A DNA stretch of 50,767 bases from Akkermansiaceae bacterium. Its GTDB lineage: Bacteria; Verrucomicrobiota; Verrucomicrobiia; Verrucomicrobiales; Akkermansiaceae. A model generated the notes under the pieces. The model saw nothing but the letters and a program-made list of their open reading frames with translations, made no database searches and had not been told where the DNA came from. The position numbers and the translations under genes were made by a program. This document shows, piece after piece, positions 2,266 through 9,792 of the stretch; the stretch's first letter is position 1; every line of letters begins with the position of its first letter. The stretch lies in NCBI GenBank assembly GCA_023263995.1, contig JALQTQ010000002.1, positions 1 through 50,767 on the forward strand, in the 5' to 3' direction.

Positions 2266-3612
2266 ATGAGAATCCGCTCGTTAACTCTAAAAAACTTCCG
2301 ATGCTTTCCGGACCTCCAAGTGCCGGTGGAGTTTGACAACTCGATGACTGTTCTGGCGGCAACAAACGGCCGCGGCAAATCCTCGATCCTGGATGCTATT
2401 ACCGTTGCCTTGAGTCCCTACACGGCTCAGTTCGAGCATGGAGGGCAGAAGGGCTTTAAGCTGACAGATGCTTACCTAAAGGCTGTCCAACCGAGGGTAA
2501 ACTCTCGCTCCAATTTGTTGAGCACGGAAATTCAGTTCCCGGTAGTATTGGAAGCCGGGTTCGAAATAGAAAACCAAATCGTGCATACTGCACGCCGACT
2601 AACTGGGCCCAAAGGCCGGACCACCATAAAGGAAGCAGCCGCTCTGAAAGAACACGCGGTGGCCCTGTCGAATCGGATCACCAAGGAGGAAACAGCAGTC
2701 AACACAATCCTGCCAGTCATTTCCTACTACGGGACCGGACGCCTCCATGCTCAGAAGCGCCTCACTCAAAAGGGGAAGACTCCAGAAGCTCACAATCCCC
2801 AGTCGAGGACGATGGGCTATCTGAACTGTCTTTCCGCTGAGTCCACCTACAAGCACTTTGCTGAGTGGATGAAGGAGACCACCCTCTCCCAGCTCCAAGA
2901 GTCTGATCCGAGCTATTTTGAGGGAAATCCCGAGATTTTTGAAGGCATGTTGCAAGGAGTCCGCATGGCGGTACAATGCGTCCTTCAGGATCAAGCATGG
3001 AGTGATCTTCGCTACACCGTGAAGAGCGACCAGCTGACGGTGCTTGAGAGCAATGCTCGGATCTCGCTGGCCTCTCTCTCGGATGGATTGCGAAGCATCA
3101 TTGCGATGGTTGGCGATCTCGCCTACCGTTGCATCGCCTTAAATCCCCAGCTTGGCCCGGAGGCTCCTAAGGTTACACCCGGTATCGTCCTTATCGACGA
3201 ACTCGAAATGCACCTGCACCCCGCCTGGCAGCAAAAGGTTCTTGCCCAGCTTCAGCATGCCTTCCCATTCGTTCAATTTGTCTGCACCACTCACAGTCCG
3301 CAGATTCTTTCAACAGTTCGTCCCCGGTCGATCCGAACGCTTCATGAAGGCGGCAAAGTAATGTCGCCGACCTGCAAGACTTACGGAGCGGAAAGCAAGC
3401 GTGTCATGGAGGAACTGATGCGGGTGGATTCCCGACCACCCGTTTTAGTTAACGAGCTTCGAGAGTTTATCACACTCACTGATGGCGGGGACTGGTTCAG
3501 TCAGAGATACCGGGAACTGAGAGAATTGCTGCTCAATGAGCTTGGGCCTAGCGATCCCGTGCTGATCAATGCGGAGATTAAGAAAAACTTCCAACAGCTC
3601 GAAGTCGAATGA
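2266..3612 (+). CDS. ABC/SMC-like ATPase (AAA_15/AAA_21 type), PtuA-like (Septu defence ATPase)
   Basis: N-terminal MRIRSLTLKNFRCF...ATNGRGKSSILDAI (Walker A), Walker B/D-loop IVLIDELEMHLHP and H-loop CTTHSPQILS are present. There is no TOPRIM tail. The stop overlaps the start of an HNH gene (ATGA at 3609-3612). Confidence 0.7.
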   Translation: MRIRSLTLKNFRCFPDLQVPVEFDNSMTVLAATNGRGKSSILDAITVALSPYTAQFEHGGQKGFKLTDAYLKAVQPRVNSRSNLLSTEIQFPVVLEAGFEIENQIVHTARRLTGPKGRTTIKEAAALKEHAVALSNRITKEETAVNTILPVISYYGTGRLHAQKRLTQKGKTPEAHNPQSRTMGYLNCLSAESTYKHFAEWMKETTLSQLQESDPSYFEGNPEIFEGMLQGVRMAVQCVLQDQAWSDLRYTVKSDQLTVLESNARISLASLSDGLRSIIAMVGDLAYRCIALNPQLGPEAPKVTPGIVLIDELEMHLHPAWQQKVLAQLQHAFPFVQFVCTTHSPQILSTVRPRSIRTLHEGGKVMSPTCKTYGAESKRVMEELMRVDSRPPVLVNELREFITLTDGGDWFSQRYRELRELLLNELGPSDPVLINAEIKKNFQQLEVE

Positions 3613-4241
3613 TCTCAATCAAGATAGTCAACCCGCCGAGGTGTCTCGCGGGGTTCGCTTCCAGGTCACCTCTCCCTCGCTTCGATGCTCCAGCGTTCCA
3701 GTCGTGCAAGAACCAGATCCGAACCCAGCTCCTATTAAATCAGCTTCACCAGTGTGCCTACTGTGAGAGACCGATCGAAGATTGTGGGGATTCCTCCCAC
3801 CTGGATCACATAGAAAGCCAGTACGACAACCAAGCTCGACGGTTCGACATTACCAACCTCGTGGCGGCTTGTCAGACGAGCCACACCTGCGGACATGCCC
3901 ACGGGCGGCATTCGGTGCCAGCAGAACTTGATCCCTATCGGTCGCCCGGGCTACACAGCAAGCTGTCCTGTCATTCCAGTGGTGAATTAGAGGCATGCGG
4001 TCTCTCCGCTGCAGCGGAGGAATTCGCTCTTGGCGCAAAGGGCTCAGAAGCACCAACTTTGAATCTGAATGATCCGGGCCTGATCAGTCGCCGAGAGCTG
4101 ATAATCGTCCAGCTGATGCAGCAAACGGTCGCTCTTGGCACCAACGCGAAACGCAAGCTACGGAGCCTTTCCACCCACGGGGTCGGTTTTCAAAGCCTCC
4201 ACTACCAATATCTGGCCCGATTTGGCTTCCCCACACCCTGA
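3609..4241 (+). CDS. HNH nuclease of the TIGR02646 / PtuB-like type
   Basis: Motif LLLNQLHQCAYCERPIEDCGDSSHLDHIES...NLVAACQTSHTCGHAHG matches Q..CAYCE....H.(D/E)H...NL...C...CG..KG-like. The start has a 4-nt overlap with the upstream ABC ATPase, the canonical PtuA/PtuB arrangement. Confidence 0.65.
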   Translation: MISIKIVNPPRCLAGFASRSPLPRFDAPAFQSCKNQIRTQLLLNQLHQCAYCERPIEDCGDSSHLDHIESQYDNQARRFDITNLVAACQTSHTCGHAHGRHSVPAELDPYRSPGLHSKLSCHSSGELEACGLSAAAEEFALGAKGSEAPTLNLNDPGLISRRELIIVQLMQQTVALGTNAKRKLRSLSTHGVGFQSLHYQYLARFGFPTP

Positions 4242-4258: not shown

Positions 4259-4630
4259 ATGGACAAACTCAAACTCCACACCCCGGACTTCGCAGAGGCC
4301 AACGCGGCGAAGCTGGCCGAGCTGTTTCCGAATTGCGTCACCGAGAGCAGGGCGGAAGACGGGTCGATCAAGCGGGCCATCGACTTTGATTTGCTGAAAC
4401 AGGAGCTTTCTCAGGATCTCGTCGAGGGGCCGCAGGAACGCTAACGGCTCGATTGGCCAGGCAAGCGGGAATCCCTCGCCCTCGCCAACGCACCCATCAC
4501 CAAGACCCTGCGGCCATGCAAGGAGGAGTCGGTCGATTTCGCGACCACCAAGAATCTCTCCATCGAGGGCGACAACCTCGATGCCCTCAAGCTCCTGCAG
4601 GAGACCTATCTCGGGAAGGTGAAGATGATC
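4259..4630 (+). pseudogene. N-terminal remnant of a type III-like (N6/N4, PF01555-type) DNA methyltransferase Mod
   Basis: MDKLKLHTPDFAEANAAKLAELFPNCVTESRAEDGSIKRAIDFDLLKQELSQDLVEGPQER-TAA(4442-4444)-RLDWPGKRESLALANAPITKTLRPCKEESVDFATTKNLSIEGDNLDALKLLQETYLGKVKMI is a typical Mod N-terminus, all in one frame. The expected YIDPPYN catalytic motif is replaced at 4631 by the IS66 inverted repeat. Confidence 0.8.
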
Positions 4631-4652
4631 GTAACCGTCCGGGCGACCCCTT
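4631..4652. repeat. IS66 left terminal inverted repeat
   Basis: GTAACCGTCCGGGCGACCCCTT is the exact reverse complement of 9637-9658. Confidence 0.9.
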
Positions 4653-4685
4653 AGGCCTGATCTCGTCGCGGCGTCGGATCGTGTC

Positions 4686-4994
4686 ATGATGGCCGCCATG
4701 TCCAACCGACGACACTTCACCCAGTCCGAGCGCGAGTATTGGCTCGCACATTTCGAGAAGCATCAATCGACAGCCACCAGCTTCTGCCGCCAGCACGGCC
4801 TCTGCTACCAGACCTTCTTGCGGTGGCGGCGGGACGCCCGTATCAACAAGCCATCCTCCGCCGCGCCCGCAACCTTCATCGAGCTTGCCCTGTCTGTCCG
4901 GTCCTCAACACCGCCAATGGGCGAAATGGTCGAACTCACCTTTTCCAGCGGCCTCACTCTGCGCATCCAATCCCAACCCACCCCGCAGTCATGA
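4686..4994 (+). CDS. tnpA: IS66 accessory protein TnpA (Orf1, HTH)
   Basis: The 102-aa ORF reads ...FTQSEREYWLAHFEKHQSTATSFCRQHGLCYQTFLRWRR (HTH_Tnp-like). Its stop overlaps the tnpB start (ATGA at 4991-4994), as in IS66 elements. Confidence 0.7.
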   Translation: MMAAMSNRRHFTQSEREYWLAHFEKHQSTATSFCRQHGLCYQTFLRWRRDARINKPSSAAPATFIELALSVRSSTPPMGEMVELTFSSGLTLRIQSQPTPQS

Positions 4995-5263
4995 TCCTCA
5001 CCCACAGCGTCAAAGTCTGCCTCGCCACCCAGCCGTGTGACCTCCGCAAAAGCTTCGACACCCTCAGTTGCCTCGTCAAAGAACAACTCAAAGAAGATCC
5101 ACTCTCCTCCAAGCTCTTCGTCTTCCTCAACAAACGGGCCAACCGGGTCAAAATGCTCTACTGGGATGGCACCGGACTTTGGATTTTGATGAAGAGAACA
5201 GACGCACACTGCCCGCTTTGGCCCGGTTCCGAAACTTCGGTACCGATTTCACCCGCTCTATGA
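4991..5263 (+). pseudogene. tnpB: IS66 TnpB (Orf2), N-terminal part only
   Basis: MILTHSVKVCLATQPCDLRKSFDTLSCLVKEQLKEDPLSSKLFVFLNKRANRVKMLYWDGTGLWILMKR matches IS66 Orf2 (D(M/L)RK(G/S)FD.L, LFVF.N.R...K.L.WDG.G). Family similarity is lost after about 5197. The missing C-terminus is found at 7795-7953. Confidence 0.75.
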
Positions 5264-5306
5264 AACCGATCTGGAAATTGTCGGCTCGATTGGCGGCCAA
5301 CGCGAT

Positions 5307-5513
5307 TTGATCTTCGTCAGATTGCCCGACAACAGTTCGCGTGGCATTCCGGCCTGGATGTTTGATCCAGTGCGCTGCGAAGCCATGCGCTTTGATCGCA
5401 GTGCCACCGTCGATCCGGAAGCCTTGCTGGATCTGACAAGACTGCTTGACCTCCATCAATCGGAGTGGGCTGATCCGGATGATGAACGCGATTCAAGAAA
5501 GCCCACCACCTGA
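5307..5513 (+). CDS. small hypothetical protein upstream of the serine recombinase (possibly N-terminally truncated)
   Basis: The open frame actually runs from 5193 (...RFGPVPKLRYRFHPLYETDLEIVGSIGGQRDLIFVRLPDNSSRGIPAWMFDPVRCEAMRFDR...). The only canonical start is TTG at 5307. I recognise no family. Confidence 0.3.
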   Translation: MIFVRLPDNSSRGIPAWMFDPVRCEAMRFDRSATVDPEALLDLTRLLDLHQSEWADPDDERDSRKPTT

Positions 5514-5661
5514 TTGTCCAACTGCCCACGAACAGGACCTCCTTCCCTTGGAGCAGATTCAAATCACCAACCACCTGCCCGCCGACTCACGGCATGAATG
5601 CCGACAGCTTTTCGAAGAGCTGCTGCGGCAGGTCATCCTCCCACAAAACTCCAAACTGTAG
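5479..5661 (+). CDS. small hypothetical protein (60 aa) immediately upstream of the serine recombinase
   Basis: ATG-ATG start, MMNAIQESPPPDCPTAHEQDLLPLEQIQITNHLPADSRHECRQLFEELLRQVILPQNSKL. It ends 23 nt before the recombinase start. I recognise no family. Confidence 0.3.
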   Translation: MMNAIQESPPPDCPTAHEQDLLPLEQIQITNHLPADSRHECRQLFEELLRQVILPQNSKL

Positions 5662-5684
5662 TTTATATCGTACCTTAAATAATC

Positions 5685-7757
5685 ATGAATGAAAAACTCT
5701 CCGACGGCCAGCTGCAGCGCGCGGCCTACATCTATATTCGCCAATCAACCTTGCAGCAGGTGCGGCATAATGTTGAAAGCAATCGCCGCCAATACGAACT
5801 TGAGGACCGGGCCAGAATACTCGGTTTTCAAAAGATCACCATTGTGGATGACGATCTCGGCATCTCCGGCAGCGGCACCCAAGAGCGTCCCGGTTTTGCT
5901 CGTCTTCTCAACGCCGCCTGCAATGGCGAGGTCGGCGCCGTCTTCGCCTTGGAAGCCTCCCGCCTTGCCCGCAACAACCGCGACTGGCACCATCTCATCG
6001 ACCTCTGCGTTCTCACCGACACCCTCGTCATTGATGACGAAGGGGTCTACGATCCTCGCTTGCTCAACGACCGGCTCCTGCTGGGACTCAAGGGCACCAT
6101 GAGCGAGTTCGAACTCGGCATCCTGCGTCAGCGCGCCCAGGAAGCCTATCGGCAAAAAGTCATGCGCGGTGAAGTCCTCACCCGCGTTCCCGTCGGCTTC
6201 GTCCGGGAAGGAAAGACCGGCATCGTCCTCACCCCGGATCTGGAAATCCAGCAAGCAATCCGCACCCTTTTCGAACAGTTTGAGACTCGCGGCAGCCTGC
6301 GTCAGGTCCTGCTTTGGCATCATGAGGAAAAGATCAACTTTCCCGCCATTCGCTATCGTCACGGCGGCTACCATGTTGACTGGCAACTTCCCAACTACCA
6401 GCACCTCCTGCGAGCCATGAAAAACCCCACCTACGCCGGAGCCTTCGCCTGGGGGAAGAGCACCTCACGCTCCAAGGTCGTTGAAGGCCGTTCCCTCAAA
6501 ACTGGAGGACACAAAGTTCCAATGGAACAGTGGCAGGTTTTGATCAAGGATCACCACCAAGGATACATCACCTGGGATCGCTACATGGACAATCAGAACA
6601 AGCTCGCCTCCAACCGCACCCGCAGTCACCAAAGCTCACCCGGCGCGGCCAGGGAAGGCTCCGCACTCCTTGCGGGACTCCTGCGCTGTGCCAAATGCGG
6701 GCACAAAATGCACGTCGCCTATCGGGGCAAAGAGAAAAGCGCTCCCCGATATTACTGCTTTGACGGAACCAAGGAAAAAGGTCGTCCCACCTGTCTCAGC
6801 TTCGGCGGTGTGAAGGTCGAAAACGCCATTGTCGCGCACGTCCTCGAAGCCTGCCAGCCCATTGGGGTGGAAGCCTCCCTTCACGCCTTTGAACACCAAG
6901 ACAGCCAGCGCGCACAAAAACGCCGTGCTCTCGAACTCTCCCTTGAACGCCTGCAATACCAGGCCGAGCACGCCCGTCGTCAATACGACGCGGTCGATCC
7001 CACCAACCGACTCGTCGCCTCCGAACTCGAAGCCCGTTGGAATCAATCCCTCCAATCAGTCAGTGAAGCCGAAGCCCTGCTTGACGCCGAACCCGAAGCC
7101 ACCTTTGCCCTCACCGAAGAGCAGAAGCAGCAACTTCAACACCTCGGGCAAAGTCTCAGCGAACTGTGGCACCATCCGGACAGCCCCGCCGACCTCAAGA
7201 AACGCATCCTGCGCTGCGTCATCGAAGAAATCATCGTCGACATCGACGAAGGCCCCGGACACATTGACATGCAAATCCACTGGAAGGGCGGCACCCACAC
7301 CCCCGTGCGGACCCGCAAAAACAAAGTCGGAGTCAACAGCAACGCAACGGACAAAACCATCGCCGAACTTGTCCGCGAAATGGCCAAAGCATGGAACGAC
7401 AAATACATCGCCGCCTCCCTCAACCGCCTCGGACTCAAAACCGGCAAAGGCAACAACTGGACCGAGATCCGCGTGCGCAACCTGCGCCGTGAGAACAACG
7501 TTCCCATCCTCAGCAAAGCTCCCGCAAGAACCTGGAGGACCATGGATGAAGCCGCCGAGATCCTCGGCATCAGTACTGCCAGCACCCGCACCCTGGTACG
7601 CAACAAGATCCTGCCAGCCCGCCAGATTATCCCTGGTTCTCCATGGTTGATCGAGGATGACGACCTCTCAACCGACACCATCCAAAACCACCTCAAACTG
7701 ATTCAAACAGGCAAAACCCCTCCGCGTGAGGACAACCACCCAACCCTAGACCTTTGA
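5685..7757 (+). CDS. large serine recombinase (resolvase/invertase N-domain + recombinase domain + zinc ribbon + coiled coil + C-terminal excisionase-type HTH)
   Basis: AAYIYIRQSTLQQV (catalytic Ser), GAVFALEASRLARN, LLLGLKGTMSEFELGILRQR, zinc ribbon LLRCAKCGHKMHV...YYC and C-terminal MDEAAEILGISTASTRTLVRNKILPARQ are present. Confidence 0.9.
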   Translation: MNEKLSDGQLQRAAYIYIRQSTLQQVRHNVESNRRQYELEDRARILGFQKITIVDDDLGISGSGTQERPGFARLLNAACNGEVGAVFALEASRLARNNRDWHHLIDLCVLTDTLVIDDEGVYDPRLLNDRLLLGLKGTMSEFELGILRQRAQEAYRQKVMRGEVLTRVPVGFVREGKTGIVLTPDLEIQQAIRTLFEQFETRGSLRQVLLWHHEEKINFPAIRYRHGGYHVDWQLPNYQHLLRAMKNPTYAGAFAWGKSTSRSKVVEGRSLKTGGHKVPMEQWQVLIKDHHQGYITWDRYMDNQNKLASNRTRSHQSSPGAAREGSALLAGLLRCAKCGHKMHVAYRGKEKSAPRYYCFDGTKEKGRPTCLSFGGVKVENAIVAHVLEACQPIGVEASLHAFEHQDSQRAQKRRALELSLERLQYQAEHARRQYDAVDPTNRLVASELEARWNQSLQSVSEAEALLDAEPEATFALTEEQKQQLQHLGQSLSELWHHPDSPADLKKRILRCVIEEIIVDIDEGPGHIDMQIHWKGGTHTPVRTRKNKVGVNSNATDKTIAELVREMAKAWNDKYIAASLNRLGLKTGKGNNWTEIRVRNLRRENNVPILSKAPARTWRTMDEAAEILGISTASTRTLVRNKILPARQIIPGSPWLIEDDDLSTDTIQNHLKLIQTGKTPPREDNHPTLDL

Positions 7758-7794
7758 AAATGAAAGAAGACGCTTCCTGTCGCAGTGTGAATCA

Positions 7795-7953
7795 ATCCTC
7801 AAACGTCTCGAGCGGGGTTGCTTCGCCCGGCCCAAGCCAGACGACCAGACCAAGGCCAAAATCCACCTCAAGCCCGAAGCCCTCGAAATGCTCCTCAGCG
7901 GGATCGACCTCAAAGACGGCATGCAGCGTGGTTGGTATCAGGAGCCAAATTAG
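7795..7953 (+). pseudogene. tnpB: IS66 TnpB (Orf2), C-terminal part
   Basis: This frame is not in the supplied ORF track. It reads ILKRLERGCFARPKPDDQTKAKIHLKPEALEMLLSGIDLKDGMQRGWYQEPN-stop, matching the IS66 Orf2 C-terminus (KRLE.G.F.WP......L....L..LL.G(I/L)D). Confidence 0.65.
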
Positions 7954-7971
7954 GAAGCACATCGTACCCAT

Positions 7972-9594
7972 TTGAAAAAACAACACAAAGCACCCGGAGT
8001 TGGCACTCTGGGTGCTTCCTTTTCAAGCGTGAGTGAAGAGCTGACCGAGGACCAGAAAACCATCCAGGAATTGCGTGAACGCATCCTTCAACTCGAGCAG
8101 CAGATCGACTGGTTCAATCGCCAGCTCTTCGGCAGCAAGAGCGAAAAAATCAACGCCCAACAACACCCCGACCTCTTCAACCCCGTCGGCCTGGGAAAGC
8201 CCGAGACCTCCTCCGAAAACCGACCGGAGGAGGAAGATAACGAGCCCCAAGAAGCCCCCCGCAAAACAAAAACTCGCCGCCGCCAAACCCGCAGCGAAGC
8301 ACTCCCCGAGGGGCTCGAAATCCGCTCCAGCTACGTCGACCCGCCCGAGTATCGCGAAAACCCCGCCGCTTGGCGGCTCCTCAAAGAAGAACCCCGCCGC
8401 CACCTTGGCAAAGACCCCGGCACCTTTTACATCGAGGAAAAAATCTACCGCACCTGGGTTCCCATCGACACCGATCAGATCCAAGCGAAAGCCATCGGCG
8501 CCAAAGCCCCGCCCACCATCATCCCCGGCGGCTTCTGGCTCTCAAACCTCCTCGCCGAAGTCGTCTGCAATCGCTTCCTCTACCACCTGCCGTACGATCG
8601 CCAGAGCAAACTCTACCAAAGCCGCCACGGAGTCTATCTCCCCAAGCAAACGATGTGCGACGGGGCCCTCCACCTCGCCAACCAATGCCAAATCCTCGTC
8701 GACCTCATGAAGAGCGACATGCTCCAGTGCGGGTGCTTGAGAGCGGACGAAACCGAGGCTCGCTTCCGCGATCCTGACAAACCCGGCACCACCGGGCGCG
8801 GGCGCTTCTGGCTCTACAAAGGCCTCAATGGCAACGTCATCTTCGACTGGACCCTCGGTCGCGACCACCAACACTTCCTTGACTGGATCGGCCTGGACTT
8901 CGAAGGCATCATCGGAAGCGAAGCCTACGAGGTGTATCCAAAATACTGCCGCCTTCAAAAAGCGCGAGGCAAGAAAACCCGGCGTGCCGCCTGCCTCGCC
9001 CACATTCGGCGTCAATTCGAAGAAGCCCTCAAAACCAGCCCGCACCTCGCCAAATGGTTCCTCAAGATTTTCGGCAAACTTTACCAAATCGAAGCCACCC
9101 TCAACGAGCGTGAGGCTGATGAAAACACCACCGCACGCTACCGCCAAAAACACAGCCTCCCCCTCATAAGACTTCTCAAAAAAGCCAGCCTCCACCTTCG
9201 AGACCAAAAAGCAGGACGTCCCGCCGGACCTCTTGGCAAAGCGGTGCGTTATCTCCTCAACCAAGGAGAGGACATCGAGACCTACCTTTTCCATGGCCAG
9301 GTCGAGATTGACAACAACGGGATCGAGAGAGACGTCCGCCCCCTGGCTGTCGGCCGCAAGAATTGGCTCTTTATCGGAAGCCCCGAAGCAGGCCAACGGA
9401 GTGCCGTCATCTACAGCTTACTGATCAGTGCTCGTCACCACGGAGCAGACCCGGAAGCCTACCTGCGTGGGCTCATCGAGCGGCTTCCAAGCTGCGGGAG
9501 CGACGAAGCATCACTTCGTCAACTCCTGCCCGAAAACTGGGCCGCTGCGCAGGAGCAATCAGCAAGCCGGTCATCGGCCCGCGCCGCCGCCTAA
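7972..9594 (+). CDS. tnpC: IS66-family DDE transposase TnpC
   Basis: The N-terminal leucine-zipper region ends in QIDWFNRQLFGSKSEKI. It is followed by the DDE_Tnp_IS66-like core (LRADETEARF, WLYKG, NNGIERDVRPLAVGRKNWLFIGS) and the IS66 C-terminal motif. The start may be TTG 7972 or GTG 8029. Confidence 0.9.
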   Translation: MKKQHKAPGVGTLGASFSSVSEELTEDQKTIQELRERILQLEQQIDWFNRQLFGSKSEKINAQQHPDLFNPVGLGKPETSSENRPEEEDNEPQEAPRKTKTRRRQTRSEALPEGLEIRSSYVDPPEYRENPAAWRLLKEEPRRHLGKDPGTFYIEEKIYRTWVPIDTDQIQAKAIGAKAPPTIIPGGFWLSNLLAEVVCNRFLYHLPYDRQSKLYQSRHGVYLPKQTMCDGALHLANQCQILVDLMKSDMLQCGCLRADETEARFRDPDKPGTTGRGRFWLYKGLNGNVIFDWTLGRDHQHFLDWIGLDFEGIIGSEAYEVYPKYCRLQKARGKKTRRAACLAHIRRQFEEALKTSPHLAKWFLKIFGKLYQIEATLNEREADENTTARYRQKHSLPLIRLLKKASLHLRDQKAGRPAGPLGKAVRYLLNQGEDIETYLFHGQVEIDNNGIERDVRPLAVGRKNWLFIGSPEAGQRSAVIYSLLISARHHGADPEAYLRGLIERLPSCGSDEASLRQLLPENWAAAQEQSASRSSARAAA

Positions 9595-9636
9595 TCACCG
9601 GCCAGCTCCTCTTGGCGAAAATAGACGACACCCCGG

Positions 9637-9658
9637 AAGGGGTCGCCCGGACGGTTAC
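9637..9658. repeat. IS66 right terminal inverted repeat
   Basis: AAGGGGTCGCCCGGACGGTTAC is the exact reverse complement of 4631-4652. Confidence 0.9.
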
Positions 9659-9792
9659 ATTCATCAAGCCTGTGGCATCCGTGATCCGGAATACTTCGAA
9701 CTCAAATTACGTCATCACACCGCTATGCGTTCGTGACGAAGGAGCAATTTTTCGATGGCCGGACTTTGAAAAACTCGTTTTAGTCCAAGGTC

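Follow-up and report, generated by a model that had tools for sequence, protein, structure and literature searches.

A compact large serine recombinase unit inside tnpB of an IS66 element, with relatives in accessory genes of other mobile elements

Here we analysed a 50,767-nucleotide stretch of DNA from an Akkermansiaceae bacterium (Verrucomicrobiota; assembly GCA_023263995.1, contig JALQTQ010000002.1, positions 1-50,767 of the forward strand; hereafter the window), in which the tnpB gene of an IS66-family insertion sequence (IS) is interrupted by a unit encoding a large serine recombinase (LSR). The unit, at positions 5194-7802, is very probably a minimal autonomous integrative element with the LSR as its only enzyme, and it is apparently a member of a widespread, undescribed family of parasites of parasites. 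It consists of three tightly packed genes (two small genes, orfX and orfY, followed by that for the LSR) and carries no cargo. Set against the ISfinder sense of an insertion sequence, it is shorter than 3 kb, encodes mobility genes only, has ends of its own and belongs to a family whose members reach multiple copies per genome.

Results

The unit occupies a lysine codon in a conserved TnpB motif

A first-pass annotation, made from the sequence of the window, had proposed that tnpB is split by about 2.6 kb of DNA holding two small open reading frames (ORFs) and a 690-aa serine recombinase with a C-terminal helix-turn-helix (HTH). Pfam matches and analysis of the junctions bear this out (Table 1). 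The 3′ part of the gene, found in an unannotated frame, matches positions 67-118 of our own TnpB hidden Markov model (HMM; E 2e-20), confirming the proposed similarity of the frame at 7795-7953 to IS66 Orf2. Read through the left junction, the N-terminal part of TnpB ends ...LYWDGTGLWILMKR at 5197. The C-terminal part reads ...SQCESILKRLERGCFARPKP...LLSGIDL... (in a longer reading, ...ILKRLERGCFARPKP...LLSGIDLKDG...) and terminates at a stop codon at 7951-7953.

The unit had initially been placed at 5198-7794. Comparison with uninterrupted copies, in which 5191 is joined to 7801, instead fixed an extent of 2,609 bp bounded by the dinucleotide AA. This dinucleotide is all that the two junctions have in common, and there is no target duplication, as had been noted before. 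The AA that ends the 5′ part of tnpB belongs to the Lys codon of the conserved KRLE motif, which is the point of insertion. When the B arm, AA and the B′ arm are joined, the sequence becomes TGG ATT TTG ATG AAA CGT CTC GAG, encoding the WILMKRLE of a normal TnpB (...WILMKRLERG...).

The ends of the unit (~20 bp) are imperfect inverted repeats flanking the AA dinucleotide. In every aligned unit the left end reads AA-GAGA/CACA-CACGCTCCACAATGC and the right end ...GCAGTGTG(N7)CCTC-AA. The half-sites of relatives compare as GAGGCACGCAACACACTGC (reverse complement of P) and GAGACACGCTCCACAATGC (P′), and the two arms in the window have GAG...CACACTGC in common. The P′ arm, itself an imperfect inverted repeat of the P arm, doubles as code for the conserved orfX N-terminal sequence ..HTAR... 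These features show that the unit integrates by conservative site-specific recombination, with AA as the 2-bp core and a long, conserved and asymmetric target site; the mechanism is ordinary LSR chemistry.

The two halves of tnpB seem to overlap in protein while using different codons, which the first-pass annotation had quoted correctly and for which it had offered two explanations: a fusion of two diverged IS66 copies, or mimicry of attB by attP. The Lys-Arg at the left junction is formed by the AA core and the first P′ bases, GAGA; the Leu-Lys at the right junction is formed by the last P bases, CTC, and AA. The left junction varies among other copies, with Asn-Thr, Asn-Ser or Asn-Arg in this place. 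Because of this variability the overlap is best understood as a by-product and not as conserved mimicry, an idea that is weakly supported at most.

The left end of the unit, read in the tnpB frame (window 5198-5263, TDAHCPLWPGSETSVPISPAL and then a stop), was aligned by both Pfam and our HMM to TnpB positions up to ~82, and the same alignment was obtained at five other loci (L016, L099, L107, L123 and L132). This TnpB-like reading could reflect chance, similarity of the P′ and B′ half-sites, or an old captured piece of tnpB.

Most copies of the same IS66 element are unoccupied

To look for the uninterrupted form of the element, public metagenome contigs of four runs (X1, X2, X4 and X8) were mapped onto window positions 4700-8300. 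Contigs of X1, X2 and X4, which derive from three studies, join 5191 directly to 7801, skipping 2,609 bases with two letters that fit either side, just as the AA core predicts. The depth of the empty-site contigs was 42, 51 and 18, respectively, compared to ~1-8 for contigs carrying the unit, a 3-15x difference; most copies of the IS66 element in the window are unoccupied. The X1 empty-site contig showed 0 mismatches in 202 bases of the left flank and 2 in 500 bases of the right flank. Since a single contig matches both flanks, both halves of tnpB derive from one IS66. In run X8, where the unit is only partly covered by contigs, its left end runs into a different tnpB. The units in the four runs are mostly 99-100% alike.

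Related units recur at the same codon of diverged IS66 elements

From species-representative genomes we took 80 loci with full-length relatives of the LSR. At 14 of these, an N-terminal part of TnpB adjoins a small ORF and the C-terminal part follows the recombinase, and a scan of metagenomes added 40 loci with TnpB halves split at the same profile position in the same orientation. In at least 54 further loci, therefore, a related unit occupies this tnpB codon with unchanged orientation, within host IS66 elements that are only 40-60% identical to one another. Recurrence of the same split in 14 genomes and 40 metagenome contigs is far beyond chance. In-silico excision gave an open TnpB of ~115 aa at all ten loci first tried and restored ...W(x3)KRLE... 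at 35 of the 38 loci with both junction motifs, where units measure 2581-2609 bp.

Identities of the LSR and of the host TnpB are discordant between loci. The LSRs of L017 and L125 are 93% identical while their TnpBs are 51% identical; other comparisons gave 99% versus 80% and 85-88% versus 44-58%, the converse was also observed (LSR 61% versus TnpB 81%), and overall r = 0.44. At L006 the LSR is 91% identical to that of the window, and the host TnpC just 31%. This discordance indicates that the unit moves among IS66 lineages independently. Taken together, these results uphold the earlier suggestion of a serine recombinase unit that specifically parasitises IS66 tnpB.

The insertion context is not invariably tnpB, a question the first-pass annotation had raised. 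Units at L013 and L105 (which share one site) and at L018 (another site) lie in non-tnpB DNA with the AA core kept; these are secondary sites, as with other integrases. The common site of L013 (286-324 and 3015-3053) and L105, which come from different assemblies, reads ...NNGAGISTAG|K..., where the vertical bar marks the junction, and at L013 it is bordered by a 33-39-bp inverted repeat of host DNA. At L006 (560-1200), the closest relative of the unit in the window, the N-terminal part of tnpB and the 5′ half of orfX are gone and tnpA runs into orfX residue 49; this is a deletion across the left junction. Related units were found in Verrucomicrobiota, Acidobacteriota, Planctomycetota and Pseudomonadota.

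The recombinase has the domain order of phage integrases

The LSR contains a Resolvase domain (residues 14-163, PF00239, E 1e-19) with Ser21 of a YIRQST motif as the candidate nucleophile on reading the sequence, followed by a Recombinase domain (residues 190-309, PF07508, E 7e-13), a zinc ribbon (Zn_ribbon_recom, residues 328-386, PF13408, E 2e-10) and a C-terminal extension with an HTH_17 domain (residues 619-661). Among PHROG families it matches the integrase family phrog_95 (E 7e-62).

orfX is whole only across the circle junction

The first small gene, orfX, has no start codon in the integrated unit. The first-pass annotation had noticed this at the left junction and had taken it for truncation; the observation stands, and the interpretation as decay does not, for an ATG lies at the other end of the unit. 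This start, 3 nt past the LSR stop, reads MKEDASCRSVNQSS and then continues in frame into REQTHTARFG... across the reconstructed circle junction. The first 14 codons of orfX are in frame with 5194 onward only across that junction. Each of the 32 distinct units in IS66 tnpB (class A) has such an ATG, in frame and separated from the junction by 43 or 49 nt free of stops, compared to 15 of 64 control frames. The same split layout was seen in representative units of classes B, C and D, checked by hand. For class C, a junction initially placed at the TG within CATTGCC left the ATG out of frame; the empty site at L089 put the true core 30 nt upstream, where the ATG is in frame. Being family-wide (32/32), the missing start is a design of the family and not decay. 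When integrated, orfX is one base out of the tnpB frame in the window and antisense to the target gene in other classes, so that no fusion can rescue it.

The conserved core of OrfX is ~95 aa (..HTAH/R...Y-P-x-H-P-L-F-G...IPxWMLD..C...) and starts right at the left junction. Profile searches matched 21 of 29 homologues to DUF5372 at E<=1 (best 3.6e-5). The window copy scored 16.3 bits (E 0.01; the Pfam cutoff is 25), and a feature search of the atlas with orfX returned DUF5372 clusters at 0.92-0.94. OrfX is thus a predicted distant relative of DUF5372. PHROG and NCBIfam held no match to it. The AlphaFold model (pLDDT 81) predicts a small SH3/KOW-like barrel with a helix, and a Foldseek search of PDB with this model gave no match at E<=0.001. 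The sole match of a PDB search with a profile of the orfX alignment, to designed armadillo repeats, arose through the low-complexity tail and was judged spurious. In the window the stop codon of orfX comes earlier than in most relatives. At many loci a long orfX tail extends up to the LSR start; a coding role for it was rejected on comparison of frames, which showed the conserved frame to be that of orfY.

orfY overlaps orfX and is occasionally fused to the recombinase

The second small gene, orfY, is in the window best taken as 5479-5661. At all 16 loci examined it overlaps the orfX tail in the +1 frame; its ATG is conserved, and it usually also overlaps the LSR start. The family motif is Q..L.F....W..LP...R..C..L..LL..V. 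Searches with orfY gave no match in Pfam, PHROG, NCBIfam or PDB, and by sequence it resembles no known recombination directionality factor (RDF). At three loci (L020, L028 and L072) orfY is fused in frame to the LSR gene with no intervening stop, yielding an N-terminally extended LSR; these fusions hint that physical contact with the LSR is how OrfY works.

Sister clades target accessory genes of other mobile elements

At greater distance, LSR relatives with 47-52% identity lie outside tnpB. They too form units of 2.6 kb, which reach 3-4 copies per genome and are 99.8% identical within a single genome in spite of different flanks. Further targets were found by clustering of flanks and Pfam searches. 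In istB of IS21, the unit splits the Walker A codons, G-x-x-G-T|G-K-T. In a tyrosine-recombinase gene next to an IS91-type transposase, the split falls at the R-H codons of the catalytic box. The last target is an ArdC-like gene, of which the Granulicella genome concerned also has an uninterrupted copy; this copy identifies TG as the core and ...EIARQ|MPSAKRVAGFW... as the site.

In a tree of LSRs, those targeting tnpB, the ArdC-like gene and the tyrosine-recombinase gene each form a clade with 100% support (Shimodaira-Hasegawa-like approximate likelihood ratio test, SH-aLRT). Those targeting istB are scattered (paraphyletic) along the backbone; as far as an unrooted tree can serve as a lead, istB may be the ancestral target. 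Because sister clades sit at codons of istB, the IS91-linked recombinase gene and the ArdC-like gene that are as conserved as the tnpB codon, the family is shown to home to conserved sequence within the accessory genes that other mobile elements carry.

Full-length LSR relatives (<=46% identical) were also found on 454 PLSDB plasmids, mostly of Rhizobium, Sinorhizobium and Bradyrhizobium, at up to 12 places per record. Two PLSDB records were inspected, S. meliloti RU11/001 pSmeRU11b and a Paraburkholderia sabiae plasmid; in both, the unit interrupts istB and has istA as its neighbour. Units on rhizobial plasmids (for example L086, NZ_CP021214.1 67342-76342, with the unit of pSmeRU11b at about 70.3-72.9 kb) appear in the annotation just as a 'recombinase family protein' adjacent to istA, with neither the split istB nor the two small genes listed, which makes the family invisible in standard annotation.

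Alternative explanations for the interrupted tnpB

Of the alternatives to a mobile unit, the one that survives best, though we judge it unlikely, is that a genuine LSR element has become an immobile relic in this genome, with the lost start and shortened tail of orfX as signs of decay. The unit is single-copy in its metagenome-assembled genome (MAG), its orfX stops early and no circle was seen. However, the LSR, orfY and the orfX core are all open, the startless orfX is shared by 32/32 units, and near-identical units occur in metagenomes of several studies, one of them in another tnpB context.

A native passenger, in which the recombinase belongs to an IS66 subfamily with a shorter or split tnpB and moves only as IS66, is very improbable. 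The orientation of the unit is constant inside complete-looking IS66 elements, and in the window the inverted repeats, tnpA and tnpC are intact, as this explanation would have it. A transporter IS, however, would show a stable passenger and no empty form; here the empty form is dominant in three studies, which also contradicts the natural-passenger case raised in the first-pass annotation, and the phylogenies are discordant, with LSR identities of 91% at L006 and 93% for L017/L125 accompanied by 31% for TnpC and 51% for TnpB, respectively. The same unit ends are moreover found outside IS66 (L013, L018 and L105).

Still harder to sustain is a recombination of two diverged IS66 copies through the unit, with tnpB halves from different elements. 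The apparent protein overlap in different codons had suggested it, but one empty-site contig fits both flanks (0/202 and 2/500 mismatches), and the overlap is explained by the AA core with the GAGA and CTC arm bases and is missing in other copies. Finally, an intron- or intein-like insert, removed by splicing so that tnpB stays functional, can be set aside almost entirely: precise insertion at a highly conserved codon is shared with many homing introns and inteins, but no Rfam family (group I and II introns included) matches 4600-9700, the tnpB frame runs into a stop at 5261-5263 inside the unit, and what is inserted has a 2-bp core, inverted repeats at its ends and a complete serine recombinase gene.

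The host IS66 element and its surroundings

The host element has these features of the IS66 family: a tnpA-tnpB-tnpC set, with the DDE_Tnp_IS66 domain of tnpC accompanied by the LZ and C domains of Pfam, and 29-bp terminal inverted repeats. No 8-bp target-site duplication of the IS66 copy was found; the flanks AGATGATC and ATTCATCA (window 4604-4631 and 9658-9685) are unlike, pointing to a rearrangement or deletion at one end that was mediated by an IS. A degenerate solo IS66 fragment lies elsewhere in the same genome (L002:1350-2150, - strand, contig C39). It is 81% identical to window 4929-5197, and its frameshifted tnpB still reads ...LMKRLENW..., without the unit.

Upstream, window 2266-4241 encodes an AAA_15/AAA_21 ATPase (448 aa), whose stop codon overlaps the start codon of the HNH endonuclease (210 aa) that follows, a pair resembling the kind seen in Septu-type defence systems. 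Downstream, at 4259-4444, is a short ORF that may be a DNA methyltransferase N-terminus cut off ahead of the IS66 end; it has no Pfam match.

Table 1 Coordinates of the IS66 element, the inserted unit and their recombination sites in the window
Feature	Position	Strand	Basis
IS66 left terminal inverted repeat (GTAACCGTCCGGGCGACCCCTT...)	4624..4652	+	Self-match to 9637-9665, 93%
IS66 tnpA (HTH_Tnp_1)	4686..4994	+	Pfam, E 6e-6
IS66 tnpB 5′ part = attB B arm	4991..5193	+	Pfam TnpB_IS66, E 5e-25; junction analysis
attL core dinucleotide AA	5192..5193	+	Same as 7801-7802; contig joint 5191>7801
orfX body, 106 codons + stop, no start codon	5193..5513	+	Alignment, AlphaFold (AF2) model, DUF5372 search
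Inserted LSR unit, 2609 bp including one core copy	5194..7802	+	Contig skip of exactly 2609 bases; 2581-2609 in 38 loci
P′ arm of attP (GAGAACAGACGCACACTGCC)	5194..5213	+	Half-site comparison
orfY, 60 aa, ATG start	5479..5661	+	Conserved across all four target classes
LSR, 690 aa	5685..7757	+	Pfam; PHROG integrase, E 7e-62; nearest solved relative SPbeta SprA/YokA
orfX first 14 codons, ATG 7760, 3 nt past LSR stop	7760..7802	+	Sequence reading; frame test over class-A units
P arm of attP (CGCAGTGTGAATCAATCCTC)	7781..7800	+	Half-site comparison
attR core dinucleotide AA	7801..7802	+	Junction alignment, in-silico excision, contig joint
IS66 tnpB 3′ part = attB B′ arm + gene remainder with stop	7803..7953	+	Own TnpB HMM, translation
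IS66 tnpC (DDE transposase)	7972..9594	+	Pfam DDE_Tnp_IS66, E 5e-60
IS66 right terminal inverted repeat	9637..9665	-	Self-match to left repeat, 29 bp

Discussion

A model for a minimal integrative element

We propose that the unit is excised by the LSR in circular form and that the LSR then integrates this circle at unoccupied tnpB sites. All three ORFs of IS66-family elements are needed for transposition of IS679. By targeting a helper gene of a multi-copy IS, the unit could continue to ride the IS, with intact copies supplying TnpB in trans. The set of genes expressed would depend on the state of the unit: orfY and the LSR only when integrated, with OrfX added in the circle, where its gene would stand directly downstream of the LSR gene. 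OrfY, whose translation is probably coupled to that of the LSR, is the strongest candidate directionality factor and may act like the small RDFs of SPbeta and TP901-1. OrfX, made only from the circle, might bias the reaction toward integration or otherwise report the excised state.

These elements can be combined in a more specific model, which we offer tentatively and regard as doubtful in its full form. The units would constitute an unrecognised family of hyperparasites at the catalytic-motif codons of helper genes, in which the split orfX acts as a topological sensor. OrfY and the LSR would excise the unit, and OrfX made from the circle would switch the LSR to integration (or block OrfY), giving a self-contained system that takes no input from the host.

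Several observations weigh against an active autonomous element. The empty site, for which the first-pass annotation had proposed a search, is present in contigs of three studies, yet contigs cannot separate excision from IS66 copies that were never occupied. The circle (attP) junction was not seen in contigs of the four runs, which contain no back-joint; a regular-expression search for it over all fetched loci gave 0 matches, with no circular contigs, and a degenerate attP pattern gave 0 matches in viral contigs. Absence of the circle junction in these searches proves nothing. The unit is single-copy in its own MAG (81% complete). A sigma-70 promoter scan found no promoter-like site and is uninformative for this phylum. 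The recombinase activity of the LSR is predicted, and the roles given to OrfX and OrfY are guesses: a wider structure search with the OrfX model returned only SH3/KOW-like barrels (Z<=4.5), a common arrangement that gives no functional basis, and the OrfY model is a disordered N-terminus with one helix, of low confidence (pLDDT 66). Lastly, while open-access full text yielded no account of LSR units in IS66 tnpB or IS21 istB, or of DUF5372, a description in a subscription journal is possible.

The system nevertheless offers several openings. For a compact LSR system of 2.6 kb, attB, attP and the core are now defined exactly, and natural variants for four very conserved sequences provide a comparative set on specificity change. 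Parasitism of insertion sequences at their helper genes (TnpB, IstB and the IS91-linked recombinase) bears on IS population dynamics and on the annotation of IS 'pseudogenes'. With a gene completed only in the circular form in every member, the family provides a simple, testable model of LSR directionality control, and through orfX it would place DUF5372 in a functional context for the first time. Tractable bacteria harbour relatives in abundance, as on the 454 PLSDB plasmids; cultured carriers include S. meliloti RU11/001 and Granulicella paludicola DSM 22464.

Comparison with known systems

Integrative and mobilisable elements (IMEs) with serine integrases sit inside conserved genes (traG, maff2-like and SNF2-like) of Tn5252-superfamily integrative and conjugative elements of Firmicutes (PMC5704250). 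Like those IMEs, the unit is LSR-driven and site-specific, disrupts a conserved gene of another mobile element, has very short flanking repeats and uses secondary sites. Unlike the unit, the IMEs are larger, carry replication, mobilisation or cargo genes and have conjugative elements as hosts; the unit is 2.6 kb long, encodes orfX, orfY and the LSR only, and targets IS helper genes and an ArdC-like gene.

Transposons with an LSR alone and circular intermediates are also known, as with TnpX of Tn4451, which needs no RDF (PMC5704250). The unit resembles Tn4451/Tn4453 (TnpX) and Tn5397 (TndX) in having the LSR as the sole mobility enzyme and a 2-bp core, and by analogy it may share their circular intermediate; these transposons, in contrast, use many target sites (GA) and carry resistance genes. 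The circle junction of Tn4451 creates a promoter for tnpX, making expression dependent on the circle, whereas that of the unit assembles a coding sequence and not a promoter.

Durrant et al. 2022 (PMC10083194) catalogued the target genes of LSRs and linked the DUF4368 domain to multi-targeting LSRs; Pfam finds no such domain in the LSR of the window. The consulted text and supplements of that work make no mention of IS66 or IstB.

With the integrases of phages (SPbeta SprA, TP901-1 Int, phiC31 and Bxb1) the LSR shares its domain order and an attP dyad around a 2-bp core, but the unit has no phage genes and its LSR is extended at the C-terminus by ~200 aa that include an excisionase-type HTH. 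SprB of SPbeta and Orf7 of TP901-1 are small RDFs, and a protein of ~60 aa next to the integrase, here OrfY, is by analogy a candidate RDF.

Homing to a conserved functional sequence of another transposon has precedents in the IS1111-group elements IS4321/IS5075, which target the inverted repeats of Tn21-type transposons, and in Tn5053/Tn402, the 'res hunters'. Unlike the unit, these use DEDD or DDE enzymes and non-coding targets and not the codons of catalytic motifs. Integrases of the SSV1 type and intP of Mx8 have attP inside their own gene, so that the product depends on the integrated or free state. There the split gene is that of a tyrosine integrase; in the unit it is a separate small DUF5372-like gene that accompanies a serine recombinase.

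IS607 is likewise a small serine-recombinase element without target duplication. TnpA of IS607 is a serine recombinase of small size whose domains stand in inverted order and whose target specificity is minimal (PMC4058570), while the unit has a 690-aa LSR and a long, specific site. Integration of LSR elements into genes of mobile elements was already known; the small size without cargo, the range of IS helper genes targeted at codons of catalytic motifs and the gene split by attP appear to be new.

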